DNA of 64,000 nucleotides, from the NCBI GenBank assembly GCA_037442885.1, contig JBBIPK010000004.1, positions 5,804-69,803 on the forward strand. Reading direction: 5' to 3'. The notes under the pieces were generated by a model, which saw nothing but the letters and a program-made list of their open reading frames with translations, made no database searches and had not been told where the DNA came from. Source of the DNA: Acidobacteriota bacterium. GTDB taxonomy: Bacteria; Acidobacteriota; Terriglobia; Acidiferrales; 2-02-FULL-67-57. Shown piece after piece: positions 26,398-47,913 of this stretch. A program made the translations under genes and the position numbers. Positions within the stretch are counted from its first letter, which is position 1. Each line of letters opens with the position of its first letter.

Positions 26398-27702
26398 CTA
26401 GGGGTAGATGCGGTAGAGCAGGCGGGGGAAAGGGATGGTTTCGCGGACGTGCTCGATGCCGGCGATCCAGGCCACCGTGCGCTCGACGCCGAGGCCGAAG
26501 CCCCCGTGCGGCACGCTGCCCCAGCGGCGCAGGTCGAGGTACCACTGGAAGGCCTCTTCGGGCAGCTTCTGTTCGCGGATGCGGTTGAGCAGAAGATTGT
26601 AGTCGCTCACGCGCTGGCTGCCGCCGATGATTTCGCCATAGCCTTCCGGCGCAATCATGTCCATACAGAGCGCGAGCTCGGGATTCTCCGGGTCGGGTTC
26701 CATATAGAAGGCTTTGGCCTTGGCCGGATAGCGATGGACGATGACGGGCTTCTCGTAGTGCTTGGAGAGCGTGGTTTCGTCGGCCCCGCCCAAGTCGTCG
26801 CCCCACTCGATCTGGCTGCCGTGCTCGCGCAGGAGTTTTACCGCGTCGTCGTAGCGCAGGCGGGGAAAGGGAGGCTCGATGTGGGCGAGCTTCGCGGTGT
26901 CGCGTTCCAGCGTCTCGAGTTCCCGTGCGCGGCGCGCGAGCACCGCCTGCACGGTATGCGTTACCAGATCTTCGCCCAGCTTCATCAAGTCGTCCAGCGT
27001 TGCGTAGGCCACTTCCGGCTCCACCATCCAGAACTCCGTCAGGTGGCGCCGGGTCTTCGACTTCTCGGCGCGAAAGGTGGGCCCGAAACAATAGACCTTG
27101 CCCAGCGCCGCGGCTGTGGCCTCGACATAGAGTTGTCCCGACTGCGTCAGGTAGGCCTTGCCGAGGTCGAAGTACTCGAGCTCAAACAGGGTGGTGGTGC
27201 CTTCGCAGGCGGCAGGGGTGAGGATGGGGGCATCGGTGAGGATGAAGCCGCGCGAGTCGAAGAATTCCCGGATGGCGCGGATGACCTCGTGGCGCACGCG
27301 CAGCAGAGCGGCCTGCCGCGGCGAGCGCACCCAGAGGTGGCGGTGGCTGAGCAGGAAGTCCGGCCCGTGTTCCTTGAGCGCAATCGGATAGGGCGTGGCT
27401 TCGGGCACGCGCTGGAGGACTTCGATTCCGGTCACCACGATTTCATAGCCGCCCGGCGCGCGCGGCTCGCGGCGAATGCGCCCGTGGACGCGGAGGCTCG
27501 ACTCCTGCGTCAGCGCGCGCGCGGTCTCCCAGACGGCGGGCGTAACTTCGGCCTTCGACACCACGCCTTGCAGGAGTCCGGTGCCGTCGCGGAAAAGGGG
27601 AAAGAGAATTTTTCCCGATTCGCGCAGGTTGTAGAGCCAACCCTGAAGGGTAACTTCCTCGCCTTCGTGGCGGGCGACCTCTTCAATCGCAACGACGGCC
27701 AT
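26398..27702 (-). CDS. asnS: Asparagine--tRNA ligase
   Basis: [50 protein letters not shown]. Confidence 0.95.
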
Positions 27703-28556
27703 TAGGAACGAGCCTTCGCGGGTGCGCTGGCACGCAGGGTTTCCTGGAAGCGGGCAAAGACTTTGAGAGCTTCCTCCAGCGGCTGGGGGAATTCGCCGTG
27801 GTCGCGCAACTCGAGTTGCAGAGGAAAGTCGCCGCGGGCCTGGGCGAGTGCGTGCAGGGTGGCCTTCCAGTCAATCGTGCCCTGGCCCGGAAACAGATGG
27901 TCGTCCTTGTCGCCGTGGTTGTCGTGGAGGTGGGTCGAAACCACCAGGTCGCGGAGCGCCTCGAACTCGGTCACCACCCCGTCGCCCAGATGAGCGTGCC
28001 CGCTGTCAAAGCAGACGCGCAGGTCGGTCAGGTGCGTGTAGTCGCGGAAGTAACGGAGCTTTTCGGGGCGGGAAAGTTCGTTTGGGATGTTTTCGAGCAG
28101 AATCTCGACGCCCCGCTGCTTGGCATAGACGAGCAGGGGCTCCAGGCTGGCGAAGGCAGCGTCGAACTTGGCGATGTCATATTTTTCGTGCGCCACACCC
28201 AGATGCTGGACCAGGTAGCGGAAGGGGATGTGCTCGGCCACGTCGAGCGCCCGCTTGATTTCCTCGACCGACTCGAGCCGGCGGTGACGGCCGGTTTCCG
28301 CGATGTTAATGGCAGCGCCGGTGGTGCGGCCCCAGCTGTAGTCTTGATGGAGCGGCGAGTGCAGCGAGCGCAGCTCGAGTTTGTGGTCGGCGAACCACGC
28401 GGCAAGCTCGCGCACCTGCGCTTCGTCGGTGTAATCAAAGTGTTGCTTGGCGCAGAAAATCTCGACCGCGGGGATGCCGGCGCGCTCAATCGCGTCCAGG
28501 GTCGTGACCGAGAGCTTGTGATTGACGAAGAGATGAGTCGAGAGCGCCTGCTTCAT
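27702..28556 (-). CDS. Sugar phosphate isomerase/epimerase (AP endonuclease 2 TIM barrel) family
   Basis: [28 protein letters not shown]. Confidence 0.85.
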
Positions 28557-30346
28557 CGGTTCGTTCCTGTGGAGGCGGCCGCAGTCGGCGCGCCCGAAAC
28601 CGGCACGCGCTCTAGCCCCAGTGCCACCGCGCCGCGGCGCGCGTCGCCCACCCCCGTGAGCTCGCGTGTTGCGGGCGCGATCTCGATGGCATTCAGCGCC
28701 CCGAAGCCGCGTTCCCTCCACTCAATCGTGTGACCGCGCGCCTCCAGCGTCCGTGCCAGCCCTTCGTCGAAGCCCGTTCTCTCCAGCACCAGCTTGTCCG
28801 GCATCCATTGATGATGATACCGCGCCCGCTGCACGGCCTGGGGGAGATCCAGTCCGAAGACGAGCCGGTTGAGCAGCGTCAGCAGCACCGAGTTGATGAT
28901 GGTTGGGCCGCCCGGCGCGCCCAGGACCAGCACGGGCTGGGCGTCGCGCACCACAATCGTCGGCGTCATCGAGGAGAGCGGCCGCTTGCGCGGCTCGATC
29001 CGGTTGGCTTCGCCCTGCACAAGTTCCGCGCTCGCATTGGCCGCGCCGGGCTTGGCGGCAAAGTCGTCCATCTCGTTGTTCAACAGGAAACCGAGGCCAG
29101 GCACGGTGACGCCGTTGCCGAAGAAATCGTTGATGGTGTAGGTGTTCGCCACGGCGTTGCCGACGGCGTCCACCACCGAGAAGTGCGTCGTCTCCTCGCT
29201 CTCGCGGCCGCCCGCCACCGCCGGCGTCGCTTCGTAGGGGGCGGGGTCGGGCAGCGGCAGGTGGGCGCTGGGCGTGGCGCGAGCAAAGTCAATCGTGGCG
29301 CGGTGCGCGGCGGCGTAGCGCGGGTCGAGCAAGGCGTCCACGGGGATGCGCGCGAAGTCGGGGTCGCCCAGGAAGCGCGCCCGGTCGGCAAAGGCCCGCC
29401 GCATCACCTCGACGATGAGATGGACGGTGCCGGCATCGTCAAGGCGCGCGTCCGGGGGAAGGAGAGGGTCGAGGATGTTCAGCATCTCGAGCAGAGCCAC
29501 GCCGCCCGAGCTGGGCGGGGGAGCGGTGAGGATTTCGTAGTCGCGAAAGCTGCCCCGCAGCGGCTCGCGCAGCCGTGCCCGGTAGCGGCGCAAGTCTTCG
29601 AGAGTAAACAGCCCGCCCTGCGCACGGTTTTCTTTTGCCAGCCGCTTGGCAATCGAGCCTTCATAGAATTCTTGCGCGCCGCCGCGCGCAATTTTCTTGA
29701 GCGTCTTGGCAAGATTCTTCTGTCTGAAGATTTCTCCCGGCGTGTAGAAGCGTCCCTTGCGGAGAAAAATCTTGCGGCTTTCGGGGAATCGTTCCAGGCG
29801 TTTTGCCGCCCGGCGGAAGTCTTCCGCCAGGCGCTCGCTCAGGGGGAAGCCGTTCTCGGCCAGGCGAATGGCCGGCTCCATTACTTCGGGGAGTGACATT
29901 GTGCCGAGCGCGCGCAGGGCGAGCTCCATTCCGGCCACCGTTCCGGGCACGCCCGCCGCCAGCCAGCCGAGCGTGCTGCGTTCGGGGACGAAGTTGCCCT
30001 GCGCATCGAGATACATGTCCCGGCGCGCGGCCAGCGGCGCGACTTCGCGGTAGTCAATGAAGAAGGTTCCGCCGTTGGCCATCCGCACGAGCAGGAAGCC
30101 CCCGCCGCCGATGTTGCCCGCTCCGGGGTGAGTCACGGCGAGCGCAAAGGCGACCGCCACGGCCGCGTCCACGGCATTGCCGCCCCGGCGGAGGATTTCG
30201 ATGCCGGCTTCGACCGCGTGGCGCTCATCCGCCACCACCATCCCGCCCTGCGCGCGCGCCACCGACGGCTCGGCGGACAGAAGAGACGGAGCCGGCGTCA
30301 GGAGGAGCGCCAGGAACGCTACGCAGGTGCTGCGAGAAAACTGCAT
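28553..30346 (-). CDS. ggt: Gamma-glutamyltransferase
   Basis: GGNAVDAAVA, ETTHFSVVD, LNNEMDDF, PLSSMTP. Confidence 0.96.
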   Translation of the reverse strand: MQFSRSTCVAFLALLLTPAPSLLSAEPSVARAQGGMVVADERHAVEAGIEILRRGGNAVDAAVAVAFALAVTHPGAGNIGGGGFLLVRMANGGTFFIDYREVAPLAARRDMYLDAQGNFVPERSTLGWLAAGVPGTVAGMELALRALGTMSLPEVMEPAIRLAENGFPLSERLAEDFRRAAKRLERFPESRKIFLRKGRFYTPGEIFRQKNLAKTLKKIARGGAQEFYEGSIAKRLAKENRAQGGLFTLEDLRRYRARLREPLRGSFRDYEILTAPPPSSGGVALLEMLNILDPLLPPDARLDDAGTVHLIVEVMRRAFADRARFLGDPDFARIPVDALLDPRYAAAHRATIDFARATPSAHLPLPDPAPYEATPAVAGGRESEETTHFSVVDAVGNAVANTYTINDFFGNGVTVPGLGFLLNNEMDDFAAKPGAANASAELVQGEANRIEPRKRPLSSMTPTIVVRDAQPVLVLGAPGGPTIINSVLLTLLNRLVFGLDLPQAVQRARYHHQWMPDKLVLERTGFDEGLARTLEARGHTIEWRERGFGALNAIEIAPATRELTGVGDARRGAVALGLERVPVSGAPTAAASTGTNR

Positions 30347-44854: not shown

Positions 44855-46150
44855 ATGGCAAAAAAGGGGCTGGCGCTTCACAACAAGGTCTTCATCGGCT
44901 TGATCGCCGGAGCGGCGGCGGGCGTGGCCGCCAACGCCTTCTTCGGCGGTGCCGCATGGCTCGGCTGGACGGTGGACAAAATCACGCAGCCGGCGGGCCA
45001 GATCTTCCTCCGCCTGCTGTTCATGGTCGTCATCCCGCTGATATTTGCCTCGCTGAGCCTGGGGGTGGCGCAACTGGGCGACCTGCGCAAGCTGGGGCGG
45101 ATCGGATTGAAGACGCTGGCCTACTTTGCGCTGGTCACGGCGCTGGCCACAACGATCGGTCTCTCTCTCGTCAATCTGATTCGCCCCGGCGCGGGTGTCT
45201 CGGCCGAAGTGCGCGATCAGCTCATCGGCGCCTATGCCGGGCAGGCGCAGAGCGCGGTGGCACAGGTGGCAGGGTTCAAGCTGGGCGTGGAGATGATCGT
45301 GAATCTGGTGCCGCGCAACCCGGTGGCGGCGGCGGCGCAGGGCGATATGCTCGCCTGGATCGTCTTCTCGCTCATCTTCGGCCTCGCTGTGGGCTTGTTG
45401 CCGCGCGAGCGGGCAGCGCCGATGCTGGGGTTCCTGCAAGCGCTCGCCGATGCGGTCGTCGTCATCATTGACCTGGTGATGAAGCTGGCGCCCTATGGAG
45501 TGGCGGCGCTGCTCTTCAGCGTCACGGCGCGTTTCGGCTACGATCTGCTCCAGAAGCTGCTCTGGTACGTGCTGACGGTGCTCATCGGCTTGGCGATTCA
45601 CCAGTTCGGTGTTTATTCGTTGTTGGTGAAGTTCCTGGGCGGGATGTCGCCGCGATTTTTCTTCGCCCGCGCCAAAATGGTGATGCTCACCGCCTTTTCC
45701 ACCTCTTCGAGCAATGCCACCCTGCCCACCACGATGCGAGTAAGCGAGAACGAACTGGGCCTTCCGCGCGAGGTCGGCGGCTTCGTGCTCCCGCTGGGGG
45801 CGACCATGAACATGAACGGCACCGCCCTCTTCGAAGGCGTTACCGTGCTCTTCCTGGCGCAGGTGTTCGGGATTGAGTTGAACTTGGCCGCGCAGGGCAT
45901 CGTGGTGCTGCTCTCGGTGGTTACGGCCATTGGCACGGCGGGTGTGCCCAGCGGCTCGATTCCGCTGCTCGTGCTGGTGCTCCAGGCCGTGGGGGTGCCG
46001 GGCGAAGGGATTGCGCTGATTCTGGGTGTGGACCGGCTGCTCGATATGTGCCGCACCACGCTCAATGTTACCGGCGACCTGACCGCCGCCGCCTTCATCG
46101 CCCGCAGCGAAGGCTACAGCCTGAAGGCTGCGCATGTCCCGGCGCGTTAG
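44855..46150 (+). CDS. Dicarboxylate/amino acid:cation symporter (GltP-like)
   Basis: AFSTSSSNATLP, GATMNMNGTAL, DRLLDMCRTTLNVTGD. Confidence 0.93.
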   Translation: MAKKGLALHNKVFIGLIAGAAAGVAANAFFGGAAWLGWTVDKITQPAGQIFLRLLFMVVIPLIFASLSLGVAQLGDLRKLGRIGLKTLAYFALVTALATTIGLSLVNLIRPGAGVSAEVRDQLIGAYAGQAQSAVAQVAGFKLGVEMIVNLVPRNPVAAAAQGDMLAWIVFSLIFGLAVGLLPRERAAPMLGFLQALADAVVVIIDLVMKLAPYGVAALLFSVTARFGYDLLQKLLWYVLTVLIGLAIHQFGVYSLLVKFLGGMSPRFFFARAKMVMLTAFSTSSSNATLPTTMRVSENELGLPREVGGFVLPLGATMNMNGTALFEGVTVLFLAQVFGIELNLAAQGIVVLLSVVTAIGTAGVPSGSIPLLVLVLQAVGVPGEGIALILGVDRLLDMCRTTLNVTGDLTAAAFIARSEGYSLKAAHVPAR

Positions 46151-46164
46151 CTCCCTAGGCGGGT

Positions 46165-46193
46165 TTGACTTTCGCCAACACCTGCGCTACTCT
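46165..46193 (+). promoter_or_regulatory. Sigma70 promoter of the prfA transcript
   Basis: TTGACT-17bp-TACTCT; ATG of the uORF 7 nt downstream. Confidence 0.75.
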
Positions 46194-46200
46194 ATTTGCG

Positions 46201-46236
46201 ATGACAATGAGCGCGTCAGGCTCGCTCTTCCTCTAG
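46201..46236 (+). CDS. Putative leaderless regulatory uORF MTMSASGSLFL* (UAG) in the prfA leader
   Basis: Starts at the predicted TSS, in frame with prfA, 3' end complementary to the prfA SD. Confidence 0.55.
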   Translation: MTMSASGSLFL

Positions 46237-46308
46237 GCCCCTGCGGCCACCCTACCCGTTTGTTTTCTCGAAACCCTTTTCCGGGGACGAAGTGTGTGAG
46301 AGGAAGCG

Positions 46309-47394
46309 ATGAATCTGTTTGAAAAACTCGACCAGGTCGAGGCGCGCTACGACGAGCTGACGCAGGAGCTCGCCACGCCCGCGGTGTTGGCCGACAGCGC
46401 CCGCTACCAGAAGCTCGCCCGAACCCATGCCGAGCTGGGCGCGATTGTCGAAACCTACCGCCAGTGGAAGAAGACCGATGCCGACCTGCGCGAAGCCAGG
46501 ACGCTGGCGGCGGAATCGGCGAGCGATCCGGAAATGAAGAAGATGGCGCAGGAAGAAGCCGCGCGGCTGGAGGCGCGGCGCACGGTTCTGGAACAGGAGT
46601 TGAAGCTGGCGTTGCTGCCGAAGGACCCGAACGACGAGAAGAACGTGATTCTCGAGATTCGCGCTGGCACGGGCGGGGACGAGGCGACGCTCTTTGCCCA
46701 GGAGCTGTTCCGGATGTACTCGAAGTACGCCGAGCGGCAGCGCTGGAAGGTGGAGGTGTTGAACTCAAGCGTGAGCGGTGTGGGCGGGGTGAAAGAAATT
46801 ATCGCCGCCATTCAAGGGGCAAAGGTTTACAGCCGGCTGAAGTACGAGAGTGGCGTGCACCGCGTGCAGCGCGTGCCGGAAACCGAGCAGCAGGGGCGCA
46901 TCCACACCTCGGCGGCCACCGTCGCCGTGCTGCCGGAGGCGGATGAGATCGAGATTCAGGTGGACGCGAAAGACATTCGCATTGATACCTTCTGCTCCTC
47001 CGGCCCGGGCGGGCAGTCGGTGAACACGACGTATTCGGCCGTGCGGGTTACGCACCTGCCGACGGGGTTGGTCGTCTCCTGCCAGGACGAGAAGTCGCAG
47101 ATCAAGAACAAGGCGCGAGCGCTGCGGGTGTTGCGGGCGCGGCTCTACGAGTTGGAGCGCGAGAAGCAGCAGGCAGCGATTGCCGCCGAGCGCCGCGAGA
47201 TGGTCAAGAGCGGCGACCGCAGCGAGAAGATTCGCACCTACAACTTCCCTCAGAACCGCGTCACCGACCATCGCATCGGGCTCACACTGCACCAACTGGG
47301 CGACGTTCTCGACGGCAAGATGGACGCGCTGGTCGACGCGCTCGTCACCCATTACCAGGCCGAGCGGCTCAAGCGGGAACTCGTCGGGGTCTGA
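46309..47394 (+). CDS. prfA: Peptide chain release factor 1
   Basis: RVPETE (PxT discriminator), [20 protein letters not shown]. Confidence 0.98.
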
Positions 47395-47451: not shown

Positions 47452-47913
47452 ATGGAGGCGCAGTCGCTGACCGTGCAGATTTCGGTTGCTTTGATCCGGG
47501 ACTTTCTGGTGTCGGTGGTGGCGCTGGTGGGGCTGTGGCAGTTGCTCGAGTGGCGCAAGCAGCGCCGGCTGCACGCGATGGCGCAGGTGAACGAACGCCT
47601 CCAGCGCGGGGACGTGCGCCGCGCACGGCGGACGGTCTACAACCTGCCGGAAGATGCCAGCCCGGAAGACGCCGCCCATTGGCCCGACGAGGCCAAATGG
47701 GACGCAGAGCTGGTCTGCTCAAGCTTCGAGGTCATCGGCTTGATGGCGGAGGAAGACATGGTGCCGGCCAAATGGCTGATCGAGAACTGGCGCTACGCGA
47801 TTGTGCAAAGCTGGGACCGCGCCAAGCCCTTGATTGACTACTACCGGCGCACGCGGGCGGCCGATTACTGGCACTACTACGAGAAGCTCGTCGAGCGCGC
47901 GCGCAAGCTTTAG
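47452..47913 (+). CDS. Hypothetical protein, DUF4760-like
   Basis: SD GGAGG, N-terminal TM, FE.IGLM..W....PLI...R..YEKL pattern. Confidence 0.6.
   Translation: MEAQSLTVQISVALIRDFLVSVVALVGLWQLLEWRKQRRLHAMAQVNERLQRGDVRRARRTVYNLPEDASPEDAAHWPDEAKWDAELVCSSFEVIGLMAEEDMVPAKWLIENWRYAIVQSWDRAKPLIDYYRRTRAADYWHYYEKLVERARKL

Follow-up and report, generated by a model that had tools for sequence, protein, structure and literature searches.

The 64,000-nucleotide stretch of DNA analysed here (the window; contig JBBIPK010000004.1 of GenBank assembly GCA_037442885.1, from an Acidobacteriota bacterium of the Acidiferrales) carries prfA, the gene for peptide chain release factor 1 (RF1), and ahead of it a short leader open reading frame (ORF) that ends in UAG. 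UAG is read only by RF1. Our analysis of the prfA promoter and 5' leader suggests that the UAG-ended ORF probably senses RF1 and sets prfA expression inversely to it, with read-through of the UAG as the favoured output. As a candidate RF1 sensor the leader ORF is well supported by its counterparts in related genomes, and the route by which its signal would travel from the UAG to prfA is one that we infer. A sensor with negative feedback seems the most economical explanation because unrelated ORFs keep before prfA only the UAG, which is specific to RF1; read-through is favoured as the output because it alone has a comparative signal of its own, in a sister family of the source organism. Viewed across several families of the Terriglobia, the arrangement could be, with a chance that we put barely above even, a natural RF1 autoregulatory device that uses a UAG in a leader ORF or in an upstream gene as its gauge and that, in this sister family, would act through regulated read-through. 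Taken alone, the features of the window's leader are weak evidence, and they become significant only through the relatives. An earlier reading made from the letters of this DNA alone (the sequence-only reading) had proposed such a leader. It now appears partly supported: right in its core, the UAG leader ORF that senses RF1, which fits the invariance of TAG in the leader ORFs compared, and wrong or unproven in the helix switch and the in-frame relation to prfA.

In the window, prfA (46309..47394, forward strand) is an uninterrupted ORF of 361 amino acids with a TGA stop. Its product is RF1, as it matches two NCBIfam equivalogs at 537 bits (NF001859, cut-off 400) and 532 bits (cut-off 423), scores 301 bits against the RF2 (prfB) NCBIfam model, below the cut-off of 370, and contains the Pfam PCRF and RF-1 domains. 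The spacer at 46151-46308, which separates prfA from a sodium:dicarboxylate symporter gene (44855-46150, Pfam SDF), holds a putative leader promoter on the forward strand, with the -35-like hexamer TTGACT at 46165..46170 and, 17 nt past it, the -10-like hexamer TACTCT at 46188..46193. In alignment A2, TTGACTTT is kept in the closest relative (L002), with a varying spacer, and the -10-like hexamer has TAAGCT, TAAAAT and TAAACT as its counterparts in relatives. A consensus promoter scan of the window's leader region returned 0 sites, because the -10-like hexamer agrees with TATAAT at only 3/6 positions. The leader ORF (46201..46236, forward strand) begins with an ATG 7 nt after the -10-like hexamer and comprises 11 codons, MTMSASGSLFL, and a stop (ATG ACA ATG AGC GCG TCA GGC TCG CTC TTC CTC TAG). 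It is probably leaderless, or has a very short 5' untranslated region, as the sequence-only reading had it; across the homologous leaders of the window's family and a third family, 4-10 nt separate the -10 box from the start codon. The UAG, our proposed sensor codon (46234..46236, forward strand), is followed by a G and lies 72 nt upstream of prfA, in an ORF separate from it. Past it comes a C/U-rich, G-poor spacer with no stop in the leader-ORF frame (46249..46296, forward strand), and then the first in-frame stop, a UGA (46297..46299, forward strand), 9 nt before the prfA AUG and overlapping the Shine-Dalgarno (SD) block of prfA, AGAGGAAG (46299..46306, forward strand). All of these elements, from the two hexamers through the open frame of 20 codons to the UGA (at -12) to the prfA ATG at 46309 and the gene's own TGA, are present where the sequence-only reading had placed them. 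A lone TAG is unremarkable in this genome, since it terminates 599 of 1588 long ORFs.

The weight of the argument lies in the relatives, for which prfA upstream DNA was compared in 195 loci and in 80 further loci from public contigs. RF1 was found in 41/41 close relatives, in 298/301 genomes sampled from the phylum and in 158/161 genomes of the class; no stop lies inside the RF1 matches listed for the 41 genomes, and the nearest named RF1 relatives are metagenome-assembled genomes (MAGs) labelled Terriglobia, Terriglobales, Bryobacteraceae and Acidiferrales. Three families of Terriglobia matter most: the window's own (f1), a sister family of the same order (f3) and the third family (f4). Their counts come from related genomes and are uncorrected for kinship, and the f3 set of 45 includes two unpublished genomes (G023 and G027) on neither of which any claim rests. 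A TAG-ended short ORF stands ahead of prfA in 45/45 f3 genomes, in the 3/3 f1 loci that bear a leader ORF and in 10/18 f4 loci, and among the f3, f1 and f4 loci examined no TAA or TGA variant of a homologous leader ORF was seen. The conservation of a short ORF with an invariant TAG, which the sequence-only reading had called for, thus holds in f3 and in the f1 and f4 loci that bear the ORF.

In f3 the leader ORF has 6-7 codons, the 6-codon form being M-[F/Y]-[A/S/T]-x-F-[Y/H]-TAG, and lies about 100 nt before prfA behind a promoter of the form TTGACA-17-TATyCT, with ATTAG invariant (alignment A1). The pattern ATG-N9-TTY-TAT-TAG has exactly one match in 37/45 f3 genomes, with 34 distinct sequences among the 37 matches (hand count), and none in 16 genomes of f1 and f2; the reversed control pattern gave 25 scattered matches over 61 genomes. 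For 20 of the 37 matches prfA coordinates are known, and each of these 20 is on the prfA strand, some 90-390 nt ahead of the gene. In the 8 f3 genomes that the pattern misses (L012, L019, L029 and L191-L195), the ORF starts with GTG, has CAT where the pattern has TAT, or is 7 codons long, and it always ends in TAG; the 7-codon variants (L029, L193, L194) differ in length by exactly one codon. Beside the stop itself, the last sense codon of the f3 leader ORFs is always TAT or CAT and never TAC or CAC, despite the G+C-rich genomes, which points to a constraint at the nucleotide or transfer RNA level on the NAT codon next to the UAG.

The f1 set of 9 loci comprises 3 leader ORFs (the window, L002 and L009), 5 STAS-domain genes and 1 DUF1385 gene. 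The ORFs of L002, whose RF1 is 81% identical and whose leader peptide is MMTNVSADSSFL followed by the stop, and of L009 have 12-13 codons and end in F-L or G-L before the TAG. The 18 f4 loci comprise 10 TAG-ended leader ORFs, 3 DUF1385 genes with TAG and a hairpin, and 5 loci with an inserted gene and no leader ORF; the f4 homologues L039, L041, L043 and L045 end in Leu-Leu or Phe-Leu and then TAG, and f4 leader peptides fall into two types, M..P.ALL and M.R...NP....RHDF[L/A]. Judged from alignment A2, the leader elements of f1 and f4 are homologous, with the -10 box, an initiation codon 4-10 nt on, CTCCTCTAG, a hairpin and GCCCT in common. The conserved part of the peptides is confined to C-terminal residues, group by group: F-Y or F-H in f3, F-L or L-L in f1 and f4, and R-H-D-F-[L/A] in part of f4; the peptides span 6-22 residues and vary elsewhere. 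A blind count of ATG ORFs of 3-30 codons lying wholly in the leaders of the class gave TAG in 51/95, and 36/53 when restricted to f1, f3 and f4, while TAG makes up 175 of the 636 stop trinucleotides in any frame of the same class leaders.

These comparisons bear on the idea that the stretch goes untranslated and serves as a binding site for a protein or RNA, either as a DNA operator or as an RNA motif such as ...UAUUAG... in f3, and that its reading frame is a coincidence. The invariable NAT codon in G+C-rich genomes and the weak or absent SD sequences before the mini-ORFs would suit such a motif, which we nevertheless consider very improbable: an ATG or GTG stands at a fixed in-frame distance in 45/45 f3 genomes, with length variants that differ by one codon, the frame downstream of the TAG is kept free of stops in f3, and the f4 peptides keep N-P ... 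R-H-D-F-[L/A] through synonymous and other changes. An Rfam search, which the sequence-only reading had suggested, likewise produced no relevant match at E values up to 10 in the window (45900-46600) and none at the gathering score in the loci of 10 relatives.

A second source of evidence is the stop codon of the full-size genes that take the place of the mini-ORF. Genes with a Pfam DUF1385 assignment, whose products end in ..GGELVIA, lie upstream of prfA at varying distances (3 duplicate loci removed), and their stop changes with the distance: TAG in 42/51 (TGA 8, TAA 1) at 60-250 nt from prfA and in 13/13 beyond 250 nt, as opposed to 2/36 (TGA 14, TAA 20) at 30 nt or less. Pooled at spacers of at least 60 nt, TAG ends 55/64 genes compared with 2/36 that abut prfA (Fisher p = 4.6e-16, kinship uncorrected). 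In f1, the 5 STAS-domain genes end in TAG with a hairpin directly after, and the single DUF1385 gene, which abuts prfA, ends in TGA. Comparative counts of this kind show what we take to be selection for a UAG-ended ORF ahead of prfA when an untranslated spacer is present, and against UAG when the gene abuts. The upstream ORFs are of three kinds with no relation to one another, DUF1385 genes, STAS genes and mini-ORFs with three types of peptide, and have only the TAG and the downstream prfA in common.

Several DUF1385 loci have traits of their own. Among the genes that abut prfA (e.g., L130, L131, L134, L197, L220), TAA is used in 20/36 although it is the rarest stop in the source genome, which suggests that this tightly coupled layout is under selection for a stop that both release factors read. 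A group of Terriglobales loci (L031-L035, L206, L212, L221, L225, L228, L232, L239, L245, L252, L257, L261) carries a small gene between DUF1385 and prfA, and CAACGAC/CGACGAAC-like repeats flank this gene in runs that come just ahead of where prfA starts; upstream of the insertion, DUF1385 still has a TAG stop, in 13/13. In family f97 (L105, L106, L107), a canonical intrinsic terminator, CCCTCCG-CCCG-GCGGAGGG followed by TTTTGTTT, lies between the TAG-C of DUF1385 and prfA and leaves no more than some 10-30 nt to the start of prfA, in a clear attenuator-like layout.

The surroundings of the stop are also distinctive. UAGC is a weak stop signal according to passages of PMC2680264. At 41 curated loci, 36 sensor TAGs are followed by C and 5 by G, while C follows the other TAG stops of the source genome in 234/599; the tally shows a weak-context next base (C or G) at the putative sensor stop. 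Predicted structure in the 33 nt past the sensor stops exceeds that past other genes (median -9.7 vs -6.2 kcal/mol, Mann-Whitney p = 8e-7), and a stem of at least 5 bp beginning 1-4 nt after the T of the TAG is found in 38/73 sensors, compared with 6.45/73 in shuffles and 109/1584 other genes of the source genome. As many as 15 different stem sequences keep the pairing, e.g., GCGGC/GCCGC, GCGGT/ACCGC, GGGGT/ACCCC and GCCCC/GGGGC. The folds thus show, in many relatives, a predicted hairpin that starts inside the stop codon. RNAalifold found no consensus structure in 73 unfiltered stretches of the stop plus 30 nt, because the alignment is poor, so that the per-sequence hairpin count with controls was used instead. 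In the window the minimum free energy (MFE) fold gives a small hairpin, GGCC-CCUGC-GGCC (46236..46248, forward strand; -6.9 kcal/mol over 33 nt), with its 5' arm starting at the G of the stop codon and 46236-46239 paired with 46245-46248.

How the state of the UAG could reach prfA is best approached through the frame behind it. In f3 this frame is free of stops to within 25 nt of prfA in 23/24 leaders, as opposed to 12 and 15 in the other two frames and 13.3 expected from shuffles; the 24 leaders are highly diverged, since a 70% identity threshold splits them into 19 clusters and the median over pairs is 0.57. Over all families the frame is open in 32/40 (24.1 expected). The read-through towards the prfA start that the sequence-only reading had offered as one of two outputs therefore stands in f3, and is left near chance in f1 and f4. 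Its view of the leader ORF as in frame with prfA did not generalize: the frames split 14/16/11 over 41 loci, and with 14/41 in frame and no preference we rejected the relation as a conserved trait. Nor is a UGA right beside the AUG conserved (13/41 loci, with 6 and 10 for the control frames). Which stop comes second was likewise rejected as evidence, given that TGA accounts for 59/69 stop trinucleotides near the start over all frames; it is uninformative because TGA belongs to a TGAGG-type SD context in many relatives. In two f3 loci, one of them L027, the leader frame continues past its TAG into the prfA frame with no intervening stop, and read-through at loci of this type would yield an RF1 extended at its N-terminus.

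Our favoured sequence of events is as follows. When RF1 is scarce, a ribosome would dwell on the UAG and a larger share would read through. Such ribosomes would translate the stop-free, C/U-rich leader and melt the structure that holds the prfA SD, which in the source genome would be the helix between 46227-46234 and 46299-46306; they would terminate at the UGA at 46297-46299, 9 nt before the AUG, and initiation or re-initiation at prfA could rise. When RF1 is ample, release at the UAG would be fast, the leader would stay untranslated and folded, and translation of prfA would be low. Effects of a stalled ribosome on the helix or on the termination factor Rho may act as well or instead.

The stalled ribosome was the other output of the sequence-only reading, in which a ribosome held on the UAG covers an anti-SD in the final codons of the leader ORF and frees the prfA SD, and ample RF1 lets the helix sequester it. 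The anti-SD-like sequence is CUUCCUCU (46227..46234, forward strand), and the complementarity is real, as CTTCCTCT at 46227-46234 is the exact reverse complement of AGAGGAAG; the helix is part of the MFE fold of 46200-46330, where 46299-46306 is paired with 46227-46234. We modelled masking as the cost of opening the SD region (-16..+3) with and without a 28-nt footprint (stop-15 to stop+12), which was also placed elsewhere in the leader. In the free window leader the cost is 11.7 kcal/mol, and a footprint at the UAG lowers it by 5.0 kcal/mol, beyond any of 14 control positions and best of the 15 positions. Relatives commonly have CU-rich sequence at or just past the stop (CTCCTCTAG, TTCCTCTAG, or TAG then CGCTTCC). 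These points favour the masking of the anti-SD in the window, but the pairing is not conserved: the masking effect exceeds 2 kcal/mol in only 10/39 loci and ranks top in 4/39, and in L002 it is 0.69 kcal/mol, with 8/19 control windows at least as good. Because so few loci, and not even the closest relative, respond to masking, the helix is not regarded as a conserved feature. Moreover, a perfect complement of at least 8 nt between the leader and the SD/start block arises in 270/5000 dinucleotide shuffles, CU-rich leaders will often pair with a purine-rich SD anyway, and shuffled sequences fold as stably as 46200-46330 does (-35.5 kcal/mol vs a shuffle mean of -35.3, z = -0.06, with 90/200 shuffles at least as stable). 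As the main output, masking of the anti-SD by a stalled ribosome seems to us distinctly unlikely.

A transcriptional output, by analogy with tnaC and speFL, would account for other features of the leader. The hairpin at the stop would pause the polymerase, and a ribosome on the UAG would mask the beginning of a C-rich Rho-loading region or prevent a terminator and so let transcription run on into prfA, while fast release would expose the leader and transcription would end early. The stop-embedded hairpin in 38/73 sensors with its compensatory stem changes, and the excess of post-stop structure over other genes, would suit this scheme; so would composition, with C/G above 1 in 39/41 leaders and the first 40 nt past the stop at 0.37-0.44 C and 0.23-0.29 G. 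The layout also resembles that of speFL, where passages of bioRxiv 10.1101/604074 describe a pause hairpin with the 3' end of the ORF, a UAG and a masked Rho utilization (rut) site. Against it, canonical intrinsic terminators are rare, being found in 7/40 leaders (3.2 expected), and we rejected attenuation by intrinsic termination as a general mechanism; on the forward strand of 45900-46500 there is no terminator-like site, and the sole site there is on the minus strand, within prfA. The window's bias is moderate (46237-46293: C 0.37, G 0.23, pyrimidines 0.63), as 12.5% of other upstream regions reach its C-minus-G value and 7.9% its pyrimidine value, and with about 57 nt the spacer is short of what a Rho site usually takes. 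The f3 hairpins often start 11-15 nt past the stop, outside the footprint of a terminating ribosome, and the open frame behind the UAG would be left unexplained. We regard a transcriptional output as rather unlikely, and read-through remains the output that we prefer.

More fundamental is the possibility that no RF1 sensing is involved, and that the element is an ordinary upstream ORF or a stand-by site which tunes the translation of prfA and in which TAG is kept by a constraint on sequence or structure, by TAG usage or by ancestry. This, and a series of observations that weigh against an RF1 sensor with a read-through output, have to be set beside the evidence above. TAG is common genome-wide, ending 38% (599/1588) of the long ORFs here, the G or AG of the stop codon lies within the hairpin stem in many loci, and the relatives are kin, so that uncorrected counts overstate their independence. 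The feature is missing from several families of the class: small leader ORFs of family f94 stop with TGA 5, TAG 3 and TAA 5 times and those of f95 with TAA 3, TGA 2 and TAG 3 times, the promoter-proximal small ORF of L114 ends in TAA, and L031-L035 (f4) carry an inserted gene and no leader ORF. The TAG leader system is, by this comparison, not class-wide. Of the 9 DUF1385 genes with a 60-250 nt spacer and a stop other than TAG, 8 are at f94-like loci. TAG enrichment outside the class was rejected on a hand reading of about 10/34 upstream genes and about 3/17 for rpmE, near background. In the window itself the hairpin is a stem of just 4 bp, matched in stability by 42% of the other gene ends of this genome, and the read-through signal is confined to f3, the frame being open in 7/8 f1 leaders (6.2 expected) and 7/13 f4 leaders (7.2 expected). 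Finally, read-through of the hemA UAGC stop upstream of prfA was tested in E. coli, where 'little RF1 is in fact synthesized' according to a passage of PMC2680264 that cites unpublished data. What makes a leader without RF1 sensing improbable to our minds, at about the level of the transcriptional output, is that many f3 hairpins stand well clear of the stop on its downstream side and yet TAG is found in 45/45 while inner codons vary freely, that mini-ORFs, DUF1385 and STAS genes have nothing but the TAG and the downstream prfA in common, that the DUF1385 stop switches from TAA or TGA to TAG with spacer length, and that the C bias at the next base is above the genome background. A UAG-ended ORF that senses RF1 remains the reading that we prefer.

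Other features of the loci lie beyond this argument. The stop usage of the source genome (TGA 48%, TAG 38%, TAA 14% of 1588 long ORFs) is unusually rich in TAG, and demand for RF1 should be high. The symporter gene also stops with TAG followed by C (46148-46150), 15 nt before the -35 hexamer; this is probably incidental, because the same gene of L002 stops with TGA. Downstream of prfA, a DUF4760 gene (window 47452-47913) lies between prfA and prmC, usually adjacent genes. A search of public reads for 45900-46900 listed no RNA run and 5 DNA runs with shares of at most 0.11. At L005, a long inverted repeat, ccccgttccaacggcg ... cgccgttggaacgagg, is found 63-143 nt before prfA, between the STAS stop and a second copy of the TAG with its hairpin, and its insertion creates a new 14-codon ORF that ends in TAG. 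The TAG ORF is lacking in L096, L101, L114 and L231 (f94 and an Acidobacteriota MAG), which share another, conserved motif, ..GGAGTTTGAAGGACTCTTG.GCG.., 60-110 nt before prfA; it includes a short inverted repeat and may be a different regulatory RNA for prfA.

Among known systems, the leader would work most like the old hemA(UAGC)-prfA hypothesis, in which read-through of the hemA stop and re-initiation were proposed for Salmonella and E. coli, an idea attributed to Elliott 1989 in passages of PMC2680264. In both, an upstream ORF ends in a UAG of weak context, and ribosomes that read through would cross the spacer, terminate close ahead of the prfA AUG and initiate anew; relatives with DUF1385-TAG or STAS-TAG have this layout as well. 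The weak context is found in the window (UAG G) and in relatives (36/41 UAG C), and the open frame in the window and in f3. Unlike hemA, the ORF here is a dedicated mini-ORF with its own promoter, conserved over many genera. The likeness to tnaC (UGA/RF2) and speFL (UAG/RF1) would lie in a short leader ORF with delayed release at its stop, a hairpin at its 3' end and a C-rich region after it. In those systems, however, the leader peptide responds to a small molecule and keeps the release factor from acting, whereas here the release factor would be the variable and it is the identity of the stop that is conserved. PMC5397192 describes autoregulation of plant eRF1 through stop-codon read-through and nonsense-mediated decay (NMD), and there too the level of a release factor is sensed by read-through of a stop on its own messenger RNA; that system, however, is eukaryotic, relies on the 3' untranslated region and NMD, and uses one omnipotent factor with no codon specificity. 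Leader-peptide attenuators and ermC share with our model the principle that the position of a ribosome on a leader ORF selects the structure of the RNA downstream, but they sense charged transfer RNA or an antibiotic at sense codons, and in the present leaders terminator-like sites are few and release of the SD is predicted in a minority of loci. A trp-type attenuator was rejected on the terminator counts given above.

RF2 self-regulation has been a textbook case for decades. The source genome itself appears to provide the precedent for such a logic of release-factor sensing, as its prfB (contig C29, about 27428-28900, minus strand) has the canonical frameshift site, GGAGCTAT CTT TGA C with GGAG upstream, beyond which the RF2 body continues in the +1 frame; by sequence, RF2 is here regulated by the classic UGA frameshift. 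For RF1, a 2021 study states that 'There are no reports of RF1 autoregulation to our knowledge' (PMC8073009), and passages of PMC5009743 also treat it as unreported; the one proposal made for it, on hemA and prfA in enterobacteria, reportedly contributes little (PMC2680264). Our literature search, with most subscription journals outside its coverage, gave no description of a UAG leader ORF before prfA or of RF1 autoregulation, in agreement with the sequence-only reading, which knew of no dedicated leader-ORF attenuator for prfA.

If the proposal is true, several uses follow. The conserved UAG leader ORF makes the balance between RF1 and the demand of UAG codons in bacteria directly testable, with a cis element that is small and well defined and with natural variants in the Terriglobia, namely three mini-ORF types and the DUF1385 and STAS stops. 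It would also offer a natural RF1-responsive switch for amber suppression work, and suggests a comparative screen in other phyla for the identity of the stop in the ORF that precedes prfA, or in the one that precedes a prfB without the frameshift. A further parallel is RF2, where, as in the proposed system, the rate of termination at a weak-context stop that only the factor itself reads governs how much of it is made. The RF2 stop lies inside the coding sequence and an internal SD promotes the +1 escape, whereas here the stop would belong to a separate ORF and prfA is uninterrupted; the class of RF2-type frameshifts was rejected for the window, where CUC UAG G has neither a shifty CUU nor an SD-like element, CUU UAG being found only in L002 and L045. 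If true, the UAG leader would thus be the RF1 counterpart of the RF2 frameshift, and would bear on a long-standing gap.

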